DNA of 16,053 bases, from contig JBFRWI010000075.1 in NCBI GenBank assembly GCA_051439505.1, positions 1-16,053 on the forward strand. The letters run 5' to 3'. This DNA comes from Hormoscilla sp. GTDB lineage: Bacteria; Cyanobacteriota; Cyanobacteriia; Cyanobacteriales; Desertifilaceae. Below are positions 4,285 to 16,053 of the stretch, piece after piece (the first letter of the stretch is position 1; every line of letters begins with the position of its first letter). A program made the position numbers and the translations under genes. Under the pieces are notes generated by a model. It saw nothing but the letters and a program-made list of their open reading frames with translations, was not told the origin of the DNA and searched no databases.

Positions 4285-5694
4285 ATGGCTTTCATTTTGG
4301 ACATTGATGGCGATGGCGAATTAAATGCCCTGACAGATGGCAGGTTGGTGCTGCTAGATCTGTTTGGTCTGTTGGATGAGAATACGGTTGCTAGCTCGAT
4401 CGGTCCGGACGCCACTCGAACTACACTAGCAGATATAGAAGGATACCTCGATAGCATACGTCCCCTGCTGGATATCGATGGCGATGGAGAAGTTGACGCT
4501 CTGAGTGACGGGGTGTTGAACGTGGCCCATCAGATCGAGGTACTGGAGGCTGTCTTACAGAGAGCTGTCAGGGAGGGTGCAGCGAGAACCACATCAGAAG
4601 AGATCGGAGCATACCTGGATTCCTTACAGAACGAACTGCCAGTGGCAGCAGATGATAGTGCCACGATCGCCCTGGGGACAGAGGGGACGATCGCGGTCCT
4701 GGAAAATGATTCGGACCCCGATGGCAACCCCCTGACAATTATTGGGGTGTCCGACCCAGTAGAGGGAAATAATCTCAGCATCAGTGAGAACGGCGACTTT
4801 TTGGTCTATACTCCAGCGGCAGACTTTGCGGGCGAAGATAGTTTGCTCTATACAATCTCTGATGGCAGGGGAGGGACGGCAAGTGCGACAGTAAATGTGA
4901 CAGCGATTACGAATGAGCCTCCGGTAGCTGAAGATGACCAGGCGATCGTGGCTACCGGAGCAAATGCAGAGATATCGGTCTTGGCCAACGACTCGGACCC
5001 CGATGGCGATACGCTGACAATTATCACAGTCGCAGATCCAGAAAACGGTACAGTGGATATCGATGGGGACCGGATAATCTATAGTCCCAATGATGAGTTT
5101 GCTGGCACGGATAGCTTCGCCTACAGTATTAGTGACGGGGTGGCCACGGACACGGCCACAGTGACAGTCACCGTACAGCCAGCGGATCAGCCATTAACTG
5201 GTTCGGATGGAGCAGATGTGCTGATTGGTGATGATAATCTTACCAGTCTGGGGGCGACAGCAGAACAAATAATCGGTGGCGCTGGAGATGATGTTCTAGT
5301 TGGCGGACAGGGTGCCGACCAGTTGACAGGGGGTGCAGGTGCCGATCGGTTTGAGTATTTGAGCTTGGCTGACAGCGGTGCCGACCCAGCAGCTACCTTG
5401 GAAGCAGGGGATAATATTCAAGATTTCGACCCAACCGTTGATACAATTGCCCTATTGTTTGACGTGGCTCCAGGTACGCCAGTTACAGCAGCGGATGTGA
5501 CAATTAACCTGAGTTTCATCAGCAACGGCTTAGCTAGGATTGGGCTTTCTGCTCTCAACACAGAGGATCCTGAGACGGGCGAGCAGTTCCTGCCAGAGCA
5601 ATTTACCATCAGGTTGAACGGTTTGAACAATTTGGAGAATTTCAATTCAGATACTATAGGCGACGAGATCCGCAATGCGATCGTCTTTGCATAG
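4285..5694 (+). CDS. Acidic Ca2+-binding surface protein: two DxDGDG dockerin/EF-hand-like repeats, two cadherin-like/Big_9 Ig domains, RTX nonapeptides; probable type I secretion substrate
   Basis: LDIDGDGELNALTDG and LDIDGDGEVDALSDG; two 'PVA.DD...I.VL.NDSDPDG..LTI....YTP...FAG.DS..Y.ISDG' units; GGAGDDVLV-GGQGADQLT-GGAGADRF. No N-terminal signal peptide. Confidence 0.85.
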   Translation: MAFILDIDGDGELNALTDGRLVLLDLFGLLDENTVASSIGPDATRTTLADIEGYLDSIRPLLDIDGDGEVDALSDGVLNVAHQIEVLEAVLQRAVREGAARTTSEEIGAYLDSLQNELPVAADDSATIALGTEGTIAVLENDSDPDGNPLTIIGVSDPVEGNNLSISENGDFLVYTPAADFAGEDSLLYTISDGRGGTASATVNVTAITNEPPVAEDDQAIVATGANAEISVLANDSDPDGDTLTIITVADPENGTVDIDGDRIIYSPNDEFAGTDSFAYSISDGVATDTATVTVTVQPADQPLTGSDGADVLIGDDNLTSLGATAEQIIGGAGDDVLVGGQGADQLTGGAGADRFEYLSLADSGADPAATLEAGDNIQDFDPTVDTIALLFDVAPGTPVTAADVTINLSFISNGLARIGLSALNTEDPETGEQFLPEQFTIRLNGLNNLENFNSDTIGDEIRNAIVFA

Positions 5695-6460: not shown

Positions 6461-8320
6461 TTATTTGGCGGCGATCTTAAACCGATAAGAAATTGGCTGT
6501 CTGCTGTTGTTAATCATGACAAACTGATAGATACCTGTTTCCGGCAGTATAGTAGACCAGGAGGTTTTAGGGGAGTCCGCTAATAAGGGATCGCCATCGG
6601 CAGTTTGGGGATAAATAGACAGGCGGGTGGTCCCAGAGGGGTCCGCTTGCAGATAGACTTGCAAAAGTTGACTTTGACCGAGACTGGCGGTGAAGATTTT
6701 CCCGGCGCCGGGTGTCAGGGTGCCCGCAACTTGCTTGCTTTCGGCATTGAGGGCAAATTCGATTTTTTCGACCCGATTTGCTATGGTAGAGACTAGGTCG
6801 GAGGCGATCGCCTGCCAAACCTGACCGAAGGGATGTTTTTGAAAGGCGACAGCATTGTCAAACCGATCGAGGGGCGAAAAACCAAACAAATGCTCGAACC
6901 TAGCATCGGTTAAATCGTTCAGAGCCAAGTTGCTGATGTTATACTGAGCGAGTGTAGCCTGCCAGCTACTAAGATCGGCCTGGGTGTAATTTCCCATCTG
7001 GCGGCGGGCCCGATCGCTGATGCTTTCCAACTTATTCAAAGATGCCTCTGCAATTGTATACCACTGGGCTCGTAACTGAGCATCGGATGGTTTGGACGTC
7101 AGTTGACGACTATTTAATTGGGGGTTTTTATCGTAGAATTGCTGGTTGACTAAATCGCTGAAAAAAGAGTTGTTAATGTTTAAGGATAAACGGCGATCGC
7201 GCAGTCTTTGTTGGCGCCGCTGTTCGGATGAGGATATAGCTGTTTGATGTGGTTCGGAACCGCCAGTGCGGGTATTGATCCAAGCATTACGGGCCCAGAG
7301 GCCAACAAAAACGATATTAGCAAGCAGAAAACCAAAGAGCAAGAATTGCCTCAAACTGAACTGACTGAGAACCCCAGCGGTAGTGATGTTCCTAGCAGCA
7401 TAGGGGGATCTGGAGGCGGTAGCAGGAGTAACGGGAGGTGGCGCGGTGGCGGTGAGAGAATTGGGGGCGGGATGCTGCTTGAGGACTTCCTTTACGGCCC
7501 GGGCATTGGCGGGGCGATCGCCCGGTAATTCGGCCAGCATGTGGTTCAAAAGATCGGATAAATGGGGGCTAATATTCACCTGTGAGTGCCAATTCCATTG
7601 TAGAGTATCGGGGTGCATCAGTGCTTGAGGTTCCTTCCCTGTCAGCAACACCAGACAGGTAGCGGCCAGGGCATGTAGGTCGCTGCGAGGAGAGACTATC
7701 CCCATTTGCATTTGTTCGTTAGGGGCATATCCAGATTTTCCCAGCAGGGTGAGTGGTGCATTAGGATTGACTCCCGAGGAGACCTTGGCCGCCACTTGCT
7801 TGACGCCACCAAAATCAATCAGCACGGGTAGCTGGTCGGAGTGCCGTAAAATTAAATTTTCCGGGGATATGTCTCTGTGAATTACACCTTTGGAGTGAAT
7901 GTACTCTAACACGGGCAATAGTTGCATTAGCAGTTGTCTGACCTCAGTCTCATTAAAGCAGAGTCCCCGACTTTTACGGGCGGTCAGCAACTCTCGGTAG
8001 CTTTGACCCTCGGCATAATCCTGCACTAGAAACAGTAACTCGACAGTACCATTTTTCACTCGGAACATCTCTCGGAAGCGAGGAATCTGGGGATGTTGCA
8101 GTTGATAGAGGACTCCAGCTTCCCGGTCAAAAAGTTCGGAGGCTTTTTGCAGGGCGTTGGGAGTTTGCACCTTGGGGGCAAATTGCTTGAGTACGCAGAG
8201 TTCACCGAAGCGATTGGTATCTTCAGCTAGATAGGTGCGGCCAAAGCCACCATGCCCCAACTCGCGGACGATGCGGTAGCGATCGCTCAAGATGGATCCT
8301 GGATAGATAGGACTGTTCAT
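6461..8320 (-). CDS. Hanks-type (Pkn2) membrane Ser/Thr protein kinase with single TM and extracytoplasmic C-terminal region ending in a PPC-like beta domain
   Basis: LGHGGFGRTY, CVLK, HRDISPEN, DFG, GYAPNEQ; a Pro/Ala/Thr linker; TM FLLFGFLLANIVFVGLW. Confidence 0.93.
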   Translation of the reverse strand: MNSPIYPGSILSDRYRIVRELGHGGFGRTYLAEDTNRFGELCVLKQFAPKVQTPNALQKASELFDREAGVLYQLQHPQIPRFREMFRVKNGTVELLFLVQDYAEGQSYRELLTARKSRGLCFNETEVRQLLMQLLPVLEYIHSKGVIHRDISPENLILRHSDQLPVLIDFGGVKQVAAKVSSGVNPNAPLTLLGKSGYAPNEQMQMGIVSPRSDLHALAATCLVLLTGKEPQALMHPDTLQWNWHSQVNISPHLSDLLNHMLAELPGDRPANARAVKEVLKQHPAPNSLTATAPPPVTPATASRSPYAARNITTAGVLSQFSLRQFLLFGFLLANIVFVGLWARNAWINTRTGGSEPHQTAISSSEQRRQQRLRDRRLSLNINNSFFSDLVNQQFYDKNPQLNSRQLTSKPSDAQLRAQWYTIAEASLNKLESISDRARRQMGNYTQADLSSWQATLAQYNISNLALNDLTDARFEHLFGFSPLDRFDNAVAFQKHPFGQVWQAIASDLVSTIANRVEKIEFALNAESKQVAGTLTPGAGKIFTASLGQSQLLQVYLQADPSGTTRLSIYPQTADGDPLLADSPKTSWSTILPETGIYQFVMINNSRQPISYRFKIAAK

Positions 8321-11046: not shown

Positions 11047-11548
11047 GCGTTTGTCTGGGTTCGACGAGCGTTCATTGGAACTTAACTTGCATTTGTCTGA
11101 GTTAGACCTACGTCGAATGAGGCCAAGCTTACGTCTATTTTGGTTATAACAACGTCGAATGAGGCCAAGCTTACGTCTATTTTGGTTATAACAACGTCGA
11201 ACGAGGCCAAACTTACGTCGAACGAGGCCCAACTTACGTCTATTTTAGTTATCCCTACGTCGAACGAGGCCCAACTTACGTCTATTTTGGTTATAACAAC
11301 GTCTATTTTAGTTATCCCTACGTCGAATTAGGCCAAACTTACGTCTATTTTAATTATCCCTACGTCGAACGAGGCCAAACTAACGTCTATTTTGGTTAGA
11401 CTAACGTCTATTTTGGTTAGACTAACGTCGAACTAGGCCAAACTAACGTTGAGTTTGGTTAGACGAACGTTGATTTGGGCAAAAACCGTTGAGTTTGGTT
11501 AGACAAACGTTGATTTGGGCAAAAAAAACGTTAAAATCGGCAATATAA
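11047..11548. repeat. 21-bp tandem repeat array (~24 units, mainly two interspersed unit types)
   Basis: Type A ACGTCGAAyGAGGCCAArCTT and type B ACGTCTATTTTrGTTAT(AACA/CCCT) in strict 21-bp phase from 11110 to 11466, with degenerate units on both flanks and one 19-bp unit at 11467-11485. Confidence 0.95.
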
Positions 11549-11599
11549 ACGTTTGTAGGAGCTGCACTGCATGGTACATTATTAAACCGTAAGTCCCTT

Positions 11600-11721
11600 A
11601 CCTCGCGCAAGGACTAAAGTCCTTACTACGAACTATGGCCTCCTCAAAAATAAGGGTGTGTAGTAAGACCTCGCGCAAGGACTAAAGTCCTTACTACGAA
11701 CTATGGTTTTACGAACTATGG
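11600..11721. repeat. Two identical 39-bp direct repeats with internal hairpin, plus a partial third copy (cyanobacterial REP-like element)
   Basis: ACCTCGCGCAAGGACTAAAGTCCTTACTACGAACTATGG at 11600-11638 and 11668-11706; hairpin AAGGACT-AA-AGTCCTT; partial TACGAACTATGG at 11710-11721. Confidence 0.9.
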
Positions 11722-12483: not shown

Positions 12484-12846
12484 ATGCCAATTACTCAATG
12501 TCTGCATGCAGCTATTCTGGTTTCTGACCTGGAACGGGCAGAACAGTTTTATGGTAAGGTGCTGGGATTGCCTAAGGTGGATCGTCAGCTCAAATTCACG
12601 GGGGCCTGGTATCAAGTTGGCAATTTTCAGATCCACCTCATTGAAAACCGAGATGTGGCGATCGCGCTGTGGAACGCAGAAAAATGGGGAAGGAACCAGC
12701 ACCTGGCCTTTTCTGTTGCTTCTTTGGATGAGACGAAACAGCGGCTGCTAGCTAACGGTTGTCCGATCCAGATGAGTGCATCGGGTCGGGCGGCCCTGTT
12801 TACCCAAGACCCCGATGGCAATATCATTGAACTAAGTGAGGTATGA
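12484..12846 (+). CDS. VOC/glyoxalase-bleomycin resistance family protein
   Basis: LHAAILVSDLERAEQFYGKVLGL, QIHLI, HLAFSV and DPDGNIIEL metal-binding VOC motifs. Confidence 0.93.
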   Translation: MPITQCLHAAILVSDLERAEQFYGKVLGLPKVDRQLKFTGAWYQVGNFQIHLIENRDVAIALWNAEKWGRNQHLAFSVASLDETKQRLLANGCPIQMSASGRAALFTQDPDGNIIELSEV

Positions 12847-13469
12847 CAACAATTCAAGCCAGGAAAGTAACTCTAGCCTACCTCAGAGAAAAATTCAATC
12901 TGCAACGAACGGCGGATGAAAGTTTTTTTACGGAATGGTTAACGGACTTGCCAGAATTATCCGATGGGGAAAAGCAAGCATTAGACCGAGTAAAAAGCAA
13001 TTATCTTTACTTGGCAGAACTCCGTCCGATGATGATGAAATACATTGTCAAGATGGTTGTTGTAGCCAGGTTACTAGAATTTGCAGGTTTTTACGGACCC
13101 CCTTTTGAAATTGATAGCAAACCATCGATAGAAATCTTTGTTGAGGACTCCGATGATGTGATTCAGGGAAATATCGATGTCTTGGTGTTGCACAAGCATT
13201 TATCTGTTTTCGTCATCCGAGAACGGAATGTGTTATCCTTGGAAGCAGGAAAACCACAGATTTTAGCTGAGATGCTGGATAATCCTCATCCTGAAAAACC
13301 TTCCTTTGGATTAATTACCAATGGCACTGACTTTATTTTTCTGAAGTTGACCAAACAGTCAGGAACAAAGTACGCTGTTTCTAATAATTTCTCGCTGACT
13401 AATCGCGGCAATGACTTGTACAGTGTTCTCAGTATCCTCAAGCGTCTCGGTCAGTTGGCTTTGGGATGA
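12843..13469 (+). CDS. Cyanobacterial stand-alone type I restriction enzyme R-subunit N-terminal-like (PD-(D/E)xK fold) protein, catalytic motif apparently degenerate
   Basis: Family-like segments FFTEWLTDLPELS, VKMVV..LL..AGFY, G.IDVLVL, FGLITNG.DFIFLKL and LYSVLSILKRL. The start overlaps the VOC stop (ATGA, 12843-12846). Confidence 0.75.
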   Translation: MTTIQARKVTLAYLREKFNLQRTADESFFTEWLTDLPELSDGEKQALDRVKSNYLYLAELRPMMMKYIVKMVVVARLLEFAGFYGPPFEIDSKPSIEIFVEDSDDVIQGNIDVLVLHKHLSVFVIRERNVLSLEAGKPQILAEMLDNPHPEKPSFGLITNGTDFIFLKLTKQSGTKYAVSNNFSLTNRGNDLYSVLSILKRLGQLALG

Positions 13470-13591
13470 TCTGGTAAAGAGAGGAGATGGAAGAGGGGCG
13501 ATCGCCTGGTGATGGGGCGATCGCTTCTCCGTACTTGTAGCAGTTTCCGAGTCAAATATCGATTTCTTGGCCGCCAGTGAGAGAAAAACAT

Positions 13592-14056
13592 TCATCCCCG
13601 ATCGCCGAATTTTTTTATTGACCTGAATAGCCACAGCAATATCTGCCACGTCGAAACCAATATATAACACAGATATATTGGTAATAAAACAATCCCAAAC
13701 GAGAGGGCTAAAGCCAATGAAGAATAATTTGTGTCCTCACAGAAACCACAGGATTTTTTATACAAAAAATATGGCAATACAAAGAGGATTATTACCGTGG
13801 TTATTGCCGATAATAATATATTGAGCATCCAGAATTTTTGGGGTAGCAATTTGGAGTAAATTTTTATCCAAATTGTCGTCGTCCAGAGTAGCGCACCTAA
13901 GCCTGATAAACTCCAGACAATTTGATCGAAATATTCAGAGGATACATTGGACTTCGATAATAAATCCAATGTGATAGCCAATACTGGTAGAGTCCCTAGG
14001 ACTGCTAGGAACCGGAACCATAAGATATGCCAACGGCTCAAGGAGACTGGATCCAT
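13592..14056 (-). CDS. 4-TM membrane protein; stand-alone paralogue of the C-terminal membrane module of the upstream kinase
   Basis: Best start is ATG at 14056 with RBS GGAGGTAAAC-ATG (154 aa, MDPVSLSRW...). It has four hydrophobic segments and aligns end to end with the last ~155 aa of 14130..15452. Confidence 0.85.
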   Translation of the reverse strand: MDPVSLSRWHILWFRFLAVLGTLPVLAITLDLLSKSNVSSEYFDQIVWSLSGLGALLWTTTIWIKIYSKLLPQKFWMLNILLSAITTVIILFVLPYFLYKKSCGFCEDTNYSSLALALSFGIVLLPIYLCYILVSTWQILLWLFRSIKKFGDRG

Positions 14057-14129
14057 GTTTACCTCCAACTCTTTTTCGGTTAATTTACGTTCACTTTGCA
14101 ATTTATTTGCCGCCAGTGAGATCGAACAT

Positions 14130-15452
14130 TTATCTACGAGCCCCGATAATTTTTTTTATTGACCTGGATAGCCACACCAATATCTGCCACGTCGAAACCA
14201 ATATATAACACAGATATATTGGTCCTAAAACAATCCCAAACGTGAGGAAGGCAAGTATTATATACCCCTGATGTTCTGTAATATATGAGTTTCCGACTAT
14301 CCAAAAAAAATATGGCACTACTATGATTATTACCGTGGTTATTACGGATAATAATATTTTGAGCATCCAGAATTTTTGGGATAGCAATTTGGAGTAAATT
14401 TTGTTCCAAATTGTCGTCGTCCAAAGTAGCGCACCTAAGCCTGATAAACTCCAGGCAATTTGATAAAATCCATGATTGATAGAGAATCCAGTGGACTCCA
14501 ATAATAAATACAATGTGATGGCCACCAATACTGGTATAATCCCTAGGAGTGCCAGGAACCGGAACCATAAGGTACGCCAACGGATCGGCGAGACTGGATG
14601 AATGCCTACTACCAACTTTCTTGGGATTAATTGACCTTCACTGTGCAATACTGCTAATGCTTCTTTTGCCGAAGCGAAACGGTCTTCAATAACTGGTTCA
14701 ACCATTTTCGCCAACCAGTCAGCAAAAGCCCGATCGACTCGGTCAACTCGCAGGTGACGACGAAATTTAATCTTCATCTGGTATACGGGCAAATCAGCAG
14801 GGGATTCTCCCGTTAACAAAAACAGCAATGTCGTTCCCAAACCATACAAATCAGTCGAGAGTACCGCTTGTCCTCGGAATTGTTCGGGTGCCATATAGCC
14901 AAAGGTGCCCACTACTGTTGAACCACCAGTAACCGTATTGTGATAGGTATCCCGTACAGCACCAAAATCTACCAGGAAAAGTTTCCCATCATCCCTGCGA
15001 ATAATGTTTTGCGGTTTGATATCGCGGTGAATGACACTCGGGGTAAGTTCTTGTAAATAAACCAATATTTCTAAAAGTTGAGTGGCGATCGGCTTCACCT
15101 CGCTTATCTCAGGTTTCCAACCGTTTTCTACCAAGGACGCTAGGGAATTCCCAGTTGCCAATTCTTGGACAATGTAGAAACAACGGTCTGAGGGACTGTC
15201 TTGCTGAAAGTAGTCGATGTAGCGAGGGATGGCGGGATTATGTAATTGAGAGAGTATTTTCGCTTCTCGTTCAAACAATTCCAGGGCTTTCCAGTCCTTG
15301 AGGCGATGCAGGTAAAGAACTTTGATAGCAACAAAATCATTGCTTTGTAAGTCTAAAGCTTTGTAGGTAATGCCCATACCACCCTGTCCCAAGCTGTTGA
15401 CGATGCGATATTGTCGGGCCAAGACTTCTCCTGTTTGATGTAGTAGTGTCAT
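14130..15452 (-). CDS. Hanks-type Ser/Thr protein kinase with C-terminal 4-TM module
   Basis: Intact LGQGGMGITY, VAIK, HRDIKPQN, DFG, GTFGYMAPE and DLYGLG motifs, followed by four hydrophobic helices. RBS GAGGTAAAC-ATG. Confidence 0.95.
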   Translation of the reverse strand: MTLLHQTGEVLARQYRIVNSLGQGGMGITYKALDLQSNDFVAIKVLYLHRLKDWKALELFEREAKILSQLHNPAIPRYIDYFQQDSPSDRCFYIVQELATGNSLASLVENGWKPEISEVKPIATQLLEILVYLQELTPSVIHRDIKPQNIIRRDDGKLFLVDFGAVRDTYHNTVTGGSTVVGTFGYMAPEQFRGQAVLSTDLYGLGTTLLFLLTGESPADLPVYQMKIKFRRHLRVDRVDRAFADWLAKMVEPVIEDRFASAKEALAVLHSEGQLIPRKLVVGIHPVSPIRWRTLWFRFLALLGIIPVLVAITLYLLLESTGFSINHGFYQIAWSLSGLGALLWTTTIWNKIYSKLLSQKFWMLKILLSVITTVIIIVVPYFFWIVGNSYITEHQGYIILAFLTFGIVLGPIYLCYILVSTWQILVWLSRSIKKIIGARR

Positions 15453-15482
15453 GTTTACCTCTGTTTAGTTATTCTTCTGGGG

Positions 15483-16053
15483 TTAATGTCTGACGCCGTG
15501 ACTTTTGAGTAGGGTAACTATCCGGGAATTTTTCGCCAACTGCAATGGAATTTTGCCATCCTTATTCTTGGCGTTAACATTGGCACCTCGGTCTAGCAGC
15601 AACTTGACTATTTCCACGTTGCTTCTCCATGATAATGATGCCTCATACAGTGGGGTGTTGCCATACTTATCTTTAGCATTAACATCGACACCTCTGTCTA
15701 GCAGCAACTTGACTACTCCCAGGTTGCCCCCCCTTGGTGCGTCATGTAGTGGGGTTTCGCCATCCTTATTCTTGGCATTAACATCGACACCTCGGTCTAG
15801 CAGCAACTTGACTACTCCCAGGTTGCCCTCCCTTGCGGCGTCATGTAGTGGGGTATTGCCATCGGAATCTTTAGCATTAATATCGGCGCCTCGGTCTAGC
15901 AGTAACTTGACTACTCCCAGTTTGCCCCCAGCGGCAGCATGCAGTGGGGTGGTGCCATATTTACTCTTGGCATTAACATCGGCACCTCGGCCTAGCAGCA
16001 ACTTGACTACTCCCAGGTTGCCCCTCCAAATGGCCTCATGCAGTGGGGTGTGG
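15483..16053 (-). CDS. Ankyrin-repeat protein (5'-truncated by window edge)
   Basis: The frame is open to the window end (HTPLHEAIWRGNLGVVK precedes the listed ORF). At least 5 TPLH...GNLGVVKLLLDRGxDVNAK repeats plus a capping repeat, encoded by ~99-bp near-identical DNA units. Confidence 0.95.
   Translation of the reverse strand, partial: HTPLHEAIWRGNLGVVKLLLGRGADVNAKSKYGTTPLHAAAGGKLGVVKLLLDRGADINAKDSDGNTPLHDAAREGNLGVVKLLLDRGVDVNAKNKDGETPLHDAPRGGNLGVVKLLLDRGVDVNAKDKYGNTPLYEASLSWRSNVEIVKLLLDRGANVNAKNKDGKIPLQLAKNSRIVTLLKSHGVRH

Follow-up and report, generated by a model that had tools for sequence, protein, structure and literature searches.

Domain shuffling and duplication have been described among cyanobacterial kinases (PMC2176072), and in the accessible portion of that article the term 'ank' has 0 occurrences. 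The Brassica S-locus pairs a polymorphic receptor kinase, SRK, with a linked kinase-less recognition copy, SLG, with gene conversion between the two, and SLG, although dispensable, may enhance or stabilise SRK (PMC4031107). In Rhs/CDI systems, core and tip are decoupled (PMC2935791) and Rhs orphans can be expressed (PMC7043789). In the Proteus proteins IdsD and IdsE, regions that vary in an allele-specific manner cover membrane spans as well as a periplasmic loop (PMC4471559), while DGR-diversified sensors of multicellular bacteria are hypervariable, in some cases with a kinase and membrane spans, and have been proposed to function in threat or kin recognition (PMC10907252). A search limited to open-access texts, supplements excluded, returned no description of the ankyrin/hairpin kinase pair or of the four-span module considered here.

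The DNA analyzed (hereafter the window) is a stretch of 16,053 nt that represents the entire contig C75 of a 6.47-Mb assembly, in which 6451 GCGATCGC sites were counted; we take GCGATCGC to be HIP1, a cyanobacterial hallmark. Three minus-strand ORFs are of relevance, i.e., an ankyrin ORF (15483-16053) that runs off the contig end, a kinase of 440 aa (14130-15452) and a short ORF encoding a membrane protein (13592-14101), and their component features are as follows:

15483..16053, minus strand: ankyrin repeats, open at the contig end (Pfam Ank)
14130..15452, minus strand: kinase B, a Hanks-type Ser/Thr kinase of 440 aa (Pkinase, E 2.5e-36)
14646-15410, minus strand: kinase domain of kinase B, about residues 15-269 (Pkinase)
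14130..14645, minus strand: predicted four-helix membrane module of kinase B, residues 270-440 (hydropathy, charge, AF2 model with pLDDT 60)
14466..14498, minus strand: loop 1 of the kinase module, predicted outward, variable (comparison with the orphan)
14326..14464, minus strand: conserved block B, comprising TM2, inward loop 2 and the start of TM3 (8/139 mismatches to 13788-13926)
14247..14306, minus strand: loop 3 of the kinase module, predicted outward, hypervariable (comparison with the orphan and other alleles)
14152..14242, minus strand: conserved block A, comprising TM4 (4/91 mismatches to 13611-13701)
14100..14109, minus strand: duplication junction, where the 3' flank of the kinase copy is joined to the kinase-domain end, residue 269 (alignment and flanks)
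14054..14065, minus strand: putative ribosome-binding site and new ATG of the orphan, GGAGG upstream (12-mer GAGGTAAACATG)
13592..14056, minus strand: kinase-less orphan module of 154 aa, frame intact (65% identical to the kinase tail)
13925..13957, minus strand: orphan loop 1, three codons shorter than the kinase/P0003 type (allele alignment)
13739..13750, minus strand: CxxC in orphan loop 3, the loop lying at about 13700-13765 (sequence; loop 3 of P0003 also has CxxC)

Judged by its sequence, kinase B is a member of the Hanks-type Ser/Thr kinases, and its catalytic motifs are intact (glycine loop, Lys44, HRD/KPxN, DFG and APE). Among 7999 scored sequences, 2042 relatives of its kinase domain were found at E<=1e-80, and the domain is 65-72% identical to many cyanobacterial kinases, relatives which we presume to be Pkn2-like. 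The extracted tails of the listed kinase proteins share, in 89 of 107 cases, another, canonical tail, in which conserved cytoplasmic strands surround a membrane hairpin, conservation being lowest in the hairpin loop. The only match of this tail was to DUF2244, at a sub-threshold score, and we assume that its beta-rich fold is possibly 'PH-like'. Pairs with a kinase identity of 93-100% exhibited a median tail identity of 70% (31 pairs, minimum 58%) and those with a kinase identity of 87-93% a median of 64% (61 pairs), values which are biased low by the 90% clustering of the database, so that hypervariability is inflated. Tail differences within the clade sit mostly in the hairpin, and the window pairs are typical of the clade in this respect.

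In 12 of the 32 loci examined (the best 31 of 75 plus L004), namely L011-L014, L016-L018, L021, L024, L027, L028 and L041, a hairpin kinase is immediately preceded by an ankyrin-tailed kinase, with ankyrin tails of 171 to 703 aa. In a quick tree of 59 rows, ankyrin and hairpin kinases split on one branch with a support of 96; the window kinase falls on the hairpin (B) side, while a kinase at the end of contig C94 (G000:C94:20975-21891), 62% identical to that of the window, falls on the ankyrin (A) side. The ankyrin ORF of the window ends 30 nt upstream of kinase B. Since the C94 kinase and the ankyrin ORF are both open at their contig ends, and since one contig of metagenome run X6 bears both, the operon is most likely composed of kinase A-ankyrin, kinase B-four-span and orphan, in that order; 15483-16053 most likely encodes the ectodomain at the C-terminus of kinase A, the kinase domain of which lies at the end of contig C94, the C94-C75 join being inferred from the contig of another strain. 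In most of the complete ankyrin kinases a hydrophobic span precedes the repeats, which would place the repeats outside, while none was scored in three Microcoleus loci. Differences among the five ankyrin repeats of the window are largely restricted to a few positions in each, a pattern that may, by analogy, resemble that of a natural binder library.

The sequence-only reading of this DNA had missed that the kinase belongs to this conserved tandem pair. Kinase B shares with the other members the kinase domain, the position behind the ankyrin kinase and a hypervariable membrane segment, and by kinase domain and position it is assigned to the B side. It differs in that the canonical hairpin kinase has a two-span and beta-rich tail, whereas the window kinase has a four-span module with no detectable likeness to it (negative scores were obtained for all four module sequences against a profile of the 89 canonical tails), and in that a recent kinase-less copy lies behind kinase B. 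We see about an even chance that the locus represents one lineage's own form of a two-kinase receptor operon of cyanobacteria, in which the usual two-span tail of kinase B would have been replaced by a four-span module with two polymorphic outward loops.

Kinase-less copies are rare in this clade. A downstream match was found behind five of 91 kinase matches in 78 loci, corresponding to three second kinases, one set of ankyrin repeats and one true orphan (hence 1/91), while in the genome of the window the frequency is one in 31 kinase matches. The true orphan (L039:6366-6971) is a kinase-less canonical tail (201 aa) that lies between two kinases and shares 25% identity with the tail upstream of it, and on this sequence comparison is independent of, and older than, the orphan in the window.

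The membrane module gave no family match in Pfam, NCBIfam or PADLOC. Its hydropathy profile exhibits three strong spans and a weaker second one (TM2 peaks at about 0.9 in the kinase and 1.45 in the orphan), and the AlphaFold (AF2) model contains four long helices at low confidence (pLDDT 60, pTM 0.36), so that the count of four spans is based on hydropathy, charge and a low-confidence model; with this weak model, none of 40 Foldseek matches reached E<=0.001. Lys/Arg residues number four to five in the linker, three in loop 2 (in three of four sequences) and three to five in the C-tail, while loops 1 and 3 of the kinase have none. By the positive-inside rule, this distribution fits a topology with the N-terminus in and loops 1 and 3 out, in the periplasm or thylakoid lumen, and supports the earlier assignment of loops 1 and 3 as outward and of the basic loop as inward.

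The tandem duplication of ~540 bp proposed for this region is real (~541 bp), with GCCGCCAGTGAGA present at 13570 and 14109, and the two near-identical blocks that had been reported are those designated A and B above. The duplicated unit extends from the last kinase-domain residue to about 20 nt beyond the stop, and a 2-nt microhomology is possible at the junction (14100..14109). Identity between the copies is 80% over 562 nt, and between the encoded kinase tail and orphan 65% over 168 aa, confirming a kinase-less copy of the predicted four-TM module behind the kinase. A BLAST check for additional modules (blastn and tblastn) returned no third copy in the 6.47-Mb assembly, which thus holds a single orphan. 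Differences between the copies are clustered beyond chance, as none of 5000 codon shuffles reached either statistic. Identical residues amount to 18/20 in TM2, 10/12 in loop 2 and 23/26 in TM4, as against 2/8 aligned residues in loop 1 (four gap codons; 12/24 nt differ) and 5/20 in loop 3 (38/60 nt differ). Of the loops that were said to barely align, loop 3 is indeed near random, while loop 1 still aligns in part. Nor is the divergence, which had been proposed to be concentrated on the exposed surface, confined to it: it clusters in loops 1 and 3, but the variable zone of loop 3 extends into the outer end of TM3, and the cytoplasmic linker is divergent too (10/25 aa), with 15 of those codons lying upstream of the orphan ATG.

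Synonymous divergence is 0-0.07 in the conserved blocks, with zero synonymous changes in TM4, versus 0.58-0.83 in the loops (loop 1, pS 0.58 and pN 0.48; loop 3, pS 0.83 and pN 0.59), and synonymous differences fall at 2/41 sites in the blocks versus 13/17 in the loops (rounded counts, Fisher p 7e-8). As constraint on residues cannot keep silent sites alike, the common ancestor of the blocks must be much younger than that of the loops; the contrast between blocks and loops is, at the level of sequence, beyond what amino-acid constraint alone would produce. The two copies are on this evidence a recombination mosaic, in which either the blocks were converted or the loops were replaced from other alleles, and the recombination signature sought between them is therefore present. 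Diversifying selection on the loops, for which dN/dS had been proposed as a check, is not directly supported, as pN is at or below pS (loop pN/pS 0.7-0.8).

Other origins of the pattern were considered. An assembly artefact was ruled out, as the copies are 20% apart and contigs of metagenome runs X4 and X10 span the junction. A recent foreign origin is unsupported, GC3 being alike (0.43-0.44) in module, orphan and kinase. A DGR target was likewise ruled out, the mismatches not being adenine-specific (A in the orphan at 28/108 and in the kinase copy at 31/108); the locus differs from DGR targets also in having indels among its differences and in lacking a C-type lectin. No reverse transcriptase was found in the window, and the three RVT_1 matches in the assembly all lie on other contigs (G000:C125, C213 and C165).

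The orphan most likely starts at ATG 14056 (154 aa) rather than at TTG 14101, the kinase copy having Ile at the site that matches this ATG. GGAGG precedes the orphan ATG, an arrangement that in this genome is seen at 0.8% of all ATGs (189,418) and at 4.3% of the gene-like ones (2072), and the 12-mer GAGGTAAACATG at the orphan start is also that of kinase B itself (15450-15461), with six occurrences in the genome. A terminator-like site was not found on the coding strand between kinase B and the orphan. Start, ribosome-binding site and the absent terminator-like site suggest that the orphan is co-translated with the operon.

Of 14 metagenome runs that contain part of the region, with no RNA run among those listed, four from four studies were examined with all their contigs (X3, X4, X6 and X10); differences from the window are drawn from 40 listed among 235, a further 37 pieces lying outside the listing, and the contigs, at 2-7x depth in three of the runs, are fragments in which strains may be mixed. 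The pieces in X3 are identical to the window, and its study may be the source of the window, so that independent evidence of the orphan comes from X4 and X10 only. In X4, the kinase core differs from the window at 1/488 positions and the adjoining module at 40/363 (p 1e-14), and one contig spans the kinase-orphan junction. Two loop 3 paths are present in this run, one of them 123 nt longer and the other short, and two overlapping loose ends, read by hand, yield another CxxC loop followed by an acidic run. In X10, the core differs at 4/322 positions and the linker at 15/121, 350 central module letters are not alignable except for 28 nt of TM2, and an orphan follows the module. In X6 (about 260x), the kinase is followed by a single module and this in turn by the downstream flank; depth is zero over 13948-14271 between flanks of about 150-270x, i.e., the orphan is missing. 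Changes among those listed for X6 mostly yield P0003 residues (11/14 codons). In a minor X6 contig (7x), blocks B and A are 201 letters apart, a spacing that exceeds that of the orphan by 123, and this long loop 3 (+123 nt compared to that of the orphan) is in frame in X4 and X6. Furthermore, two database proteins carry the module, namely P0003 (kinase 92% and tail 70% identical to the window) and P0007 (kinase 86%, tail 42%).

These data establish that near-identical kinases carry sharply different module alleles in other populations. The check for kinases with different loop alleles thus revealed real polymorphism, in the X4, X6 and X10 contigs and in P0003. CxxC recurs in otherwise dissimilar loop 3 alleles, the window kinase allele being one without it. 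The orphan is a presence/absence trait, found in three of four runs (X3, X4 and X10) and missing in the deeply covered X6, and the X4 and X10 contigs indicate that it has been kept in other strains.

The alleles also bear on the proposal that the orphan is mainly a reservoir, where a crossover in block B or A would move its loops into the kinase or pop the orphan out, as for Rhs/CDI orphan tips. The likeness lies in a variable C-terminal module that is repeated downstream with a homologous arm permitting fusion to the main gene: the unit begins at the kinase-domain end and its near-identical arms are long. P0003 combines a kinase-like loop 1 (9/12) with an orphan-like TM3, CxxC loop 3 and C-terminus, the major X6 allele is a single module with an orphan-type 3' end, and the minor allele, at about 3% of the depth, forms a bubble over TM2-TM4. 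A pre-duplication ancestor accounts for P0003 and X6 equally well, however, and a single-breakpoint test for kinase/orphan chimaeras was not significant (p 0.08 with 45 informative sites, p 0.26 with the 37 downstream of the ATG), because many differences are private to the kinase copy of the window. Rhs/CDI loci moreover hold an array of unrelated tips, whereas here there is one orphan, no array and no copy elsewhere in the genome, with the variation inside a homologous module; no ORF or family of a Rhs/CDI-type toxin or immunity gene was found at the locus (ORFs, Pfam, NCBIfam, PADLOC). Tails vary clade-wide without orphans, so that a donor cassette is not needed, and a silent donor would need no gained start and ribosome-binding site. 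A donor role of the orphan is possible from its sequence, but that this is its principal role we consider unlikely.

The reading that we prefer, and to which we assign roughly equal chances of being right or wrong, is that of a polymorphic receptor/co-receptor kinase pair, in which B swaps its outward loops by recombination and is accompanied by an expressed kinase-less modulator. Kinase A would consist of a kinase, one membrane span and outward ankyrin repeats, followed by kinase B with its kinase and membrane tail. Homologous recombination, for which the end of the kinase and the conserved helices would provide the arms, would transfer alleles from strain to strain as well as from one tandem copy to the other. 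The orphan would have arisen by one tandem duplication at a domain boundary, subsequently gaining a start codon and ribosome-binding site, and would be co-translated with the other genes of the operon. The loops, in many cases carrying a CxxC that could form a disulfide, may bind an outside partner, candidates being the ankyrin ectodomain of kinase A or a foreign or kin surface molecule, and such binding would bring the kinases together in clusters where trans-phosphorylation could take place. The orphan, which would share the helical packing faces but not the loops, could act as a kinase-dead modulator in complex with kinase B, either contributing a second specificity or dampening the signal.

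This arrangement resembles SRK/SLG in joining a polymorphic kinase with a linked kinase-less copy, by analogy and not by homology; SLG is secreted whereas the orphan is polytopic, and the SRK ligand SCR is known whereas partners of kinase B are proposed candidates. The likeness of kinase B to IdsD/IdsE, which lack a kinase, is also one of analogy only. A bolder version, again by analogy and in our view doubtful, would be an allorecognition or immune receptor-kinase operon of multicellular cyanobacteria comparable to plant receptor/co-receptor/receptor-like-protein sets, where the ankyrin-ectodomain kinase would be the variable binder, the small-loop kinase a co-receptor with a recombining pool of loop alleles, and the kinase-less twin an expressed decoy and a donor that rewrites kinase specificity within the population. 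Signals are known for only a minority of cyanobacterial Ser/Thr kinases, and the two-kinase operon offers a candidate system for kin or threat recognition in mat-forming cyanobacteria that is both compact and testable and whose natural alleles could be swapped. If the orphan is a decoy or donor, this would represent bacterial convergence on the logic of plant SRK/SLG and receptor-like proteins; if it is neither, the locus would still illustrate clearly how modules turn over on a conserved kinase.

Searches of 60 relatives, of 400 genomes from the order and of 400 from the phylum did not detect the module, except for one borderline match (in G518; E 9.6e-4, four stops), which was rejected as a homologue. 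None of 170 near-length candidates was homologous, and one homologue, P0003, was returned both among 1004 candidates and among 1.84 billion representatives. As P0007 was missed by both module searches and found only via its kinase domain, such searches underestimate the family. Scans of genome, metagenome and viral contigs contained no module, and an atlas comparison (top score 0.90, low recognition, clusters without names) provides a lead only. The module is real, non-random, polymorphic across populations and narrowly distributed, its function being inferred.

This narrow distribution would suit a near-neutral course, in which the loops are under no constraint, recombination in the population is free and the orphan, a partial duplicate, is transient and without a function. 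The loop pN/pS below 1, the absence of the orphan from X6 and the 5' part of the X4 kinase, which also differs from the window by 4% and so marks the locus as mosaic in general, are consistent with it, as is an orphan ribosome-binding site about three changes from the X4/X6 state (counted by hand). A jobless duplicate is at odds with an orphan frame that is intact despite 20% nucleotide divergence and several indels, all of them in frame, with the net +9 nt of the orphans in X4 and X10 relative to the window orphan, i.e., in two other studies, and with the recurrence of CxxC in unlike loop 3 alleles and the long allele being in frame. We hold this course to be rather improbable.

Patchiness together with a fast-changing outward surface could also be expected of a stand-alone anti-phage or envelope-damage sensor, in which kinase B would detect a phage protein in the membrane and trigger growth arrest, its loops would race with phages and the orphan would be an inhibitor that sets the threshold. 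The top PADLOC model is PD-T4-6 (E 1e-61) and a PD-(D/E)xK-like gene (E 5e-6) adjoins the locus, but the former match is limited to the kinase domain and a canonical relative scores equally well. In a study of Streptococcus thermophilus, such matches are reported to include a PASTA-type kinase that every S. thermophilus genome possesses and whose phenotype is very mild (PMC11514479). The adjoining nuclease-like gene has eight paralogues in the genome, and the window is without a defence island, making such a sensor very unlikely. In order of preference, the receptor/co-receptor pair with its modulator is followed by its rivals, namely the donor cassette and the near-neutral course, which are rated equally, and then the phage sensor; of these rivals, the first two are not exclusive.

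A number of further features were observed in the window and the genome. The gene adjoining the orphan is a 208-aa ORF (12843-13469, plus strand) that is convergent on it, with a weak PD-(D/E)xK match and no Pfam or NCBIfam family; its eight paralogues are 41-51% identical. At 6461-8320 (minus strand) lies another, distant Ser/Thr kinase, which has a single membrane span and an extended C-terminal portion, and an acidic 469-aa protein at 4285-5694 (plus strand), with two Ig/cadherin-like domains and RTX calcium-binding repeats, is a likely surface adhesin. Elsewhere in the genome, G000:C228:27012-27857 (minus strand) encodes a kinase-domain end with a canonical-type tail, representing a second kinase-less tail or a truncated kinase. 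Another tandem kinase pair is present at G000:C33:26575-29317, where the tail of the second kinase seems to be split into the following 95-aa frame, and is followed at G000:C33:29405-32753 by three tandem near-copies of a substrate-binding-protein-like gene with intergenic sequence common to them. An intergenic array of about 23 degenerate 21-nt units occupies 11058-11553 of the window, with related patches on eight other contigs, and a patch of this 21-nt type (26744-26862) adjoins the C228 frame. Finally, an exact 39-nt direct repeat (11600-11638 and 11668-11706) lies downstream of an SDR-like gene, with related sequence on 28 other contigs.
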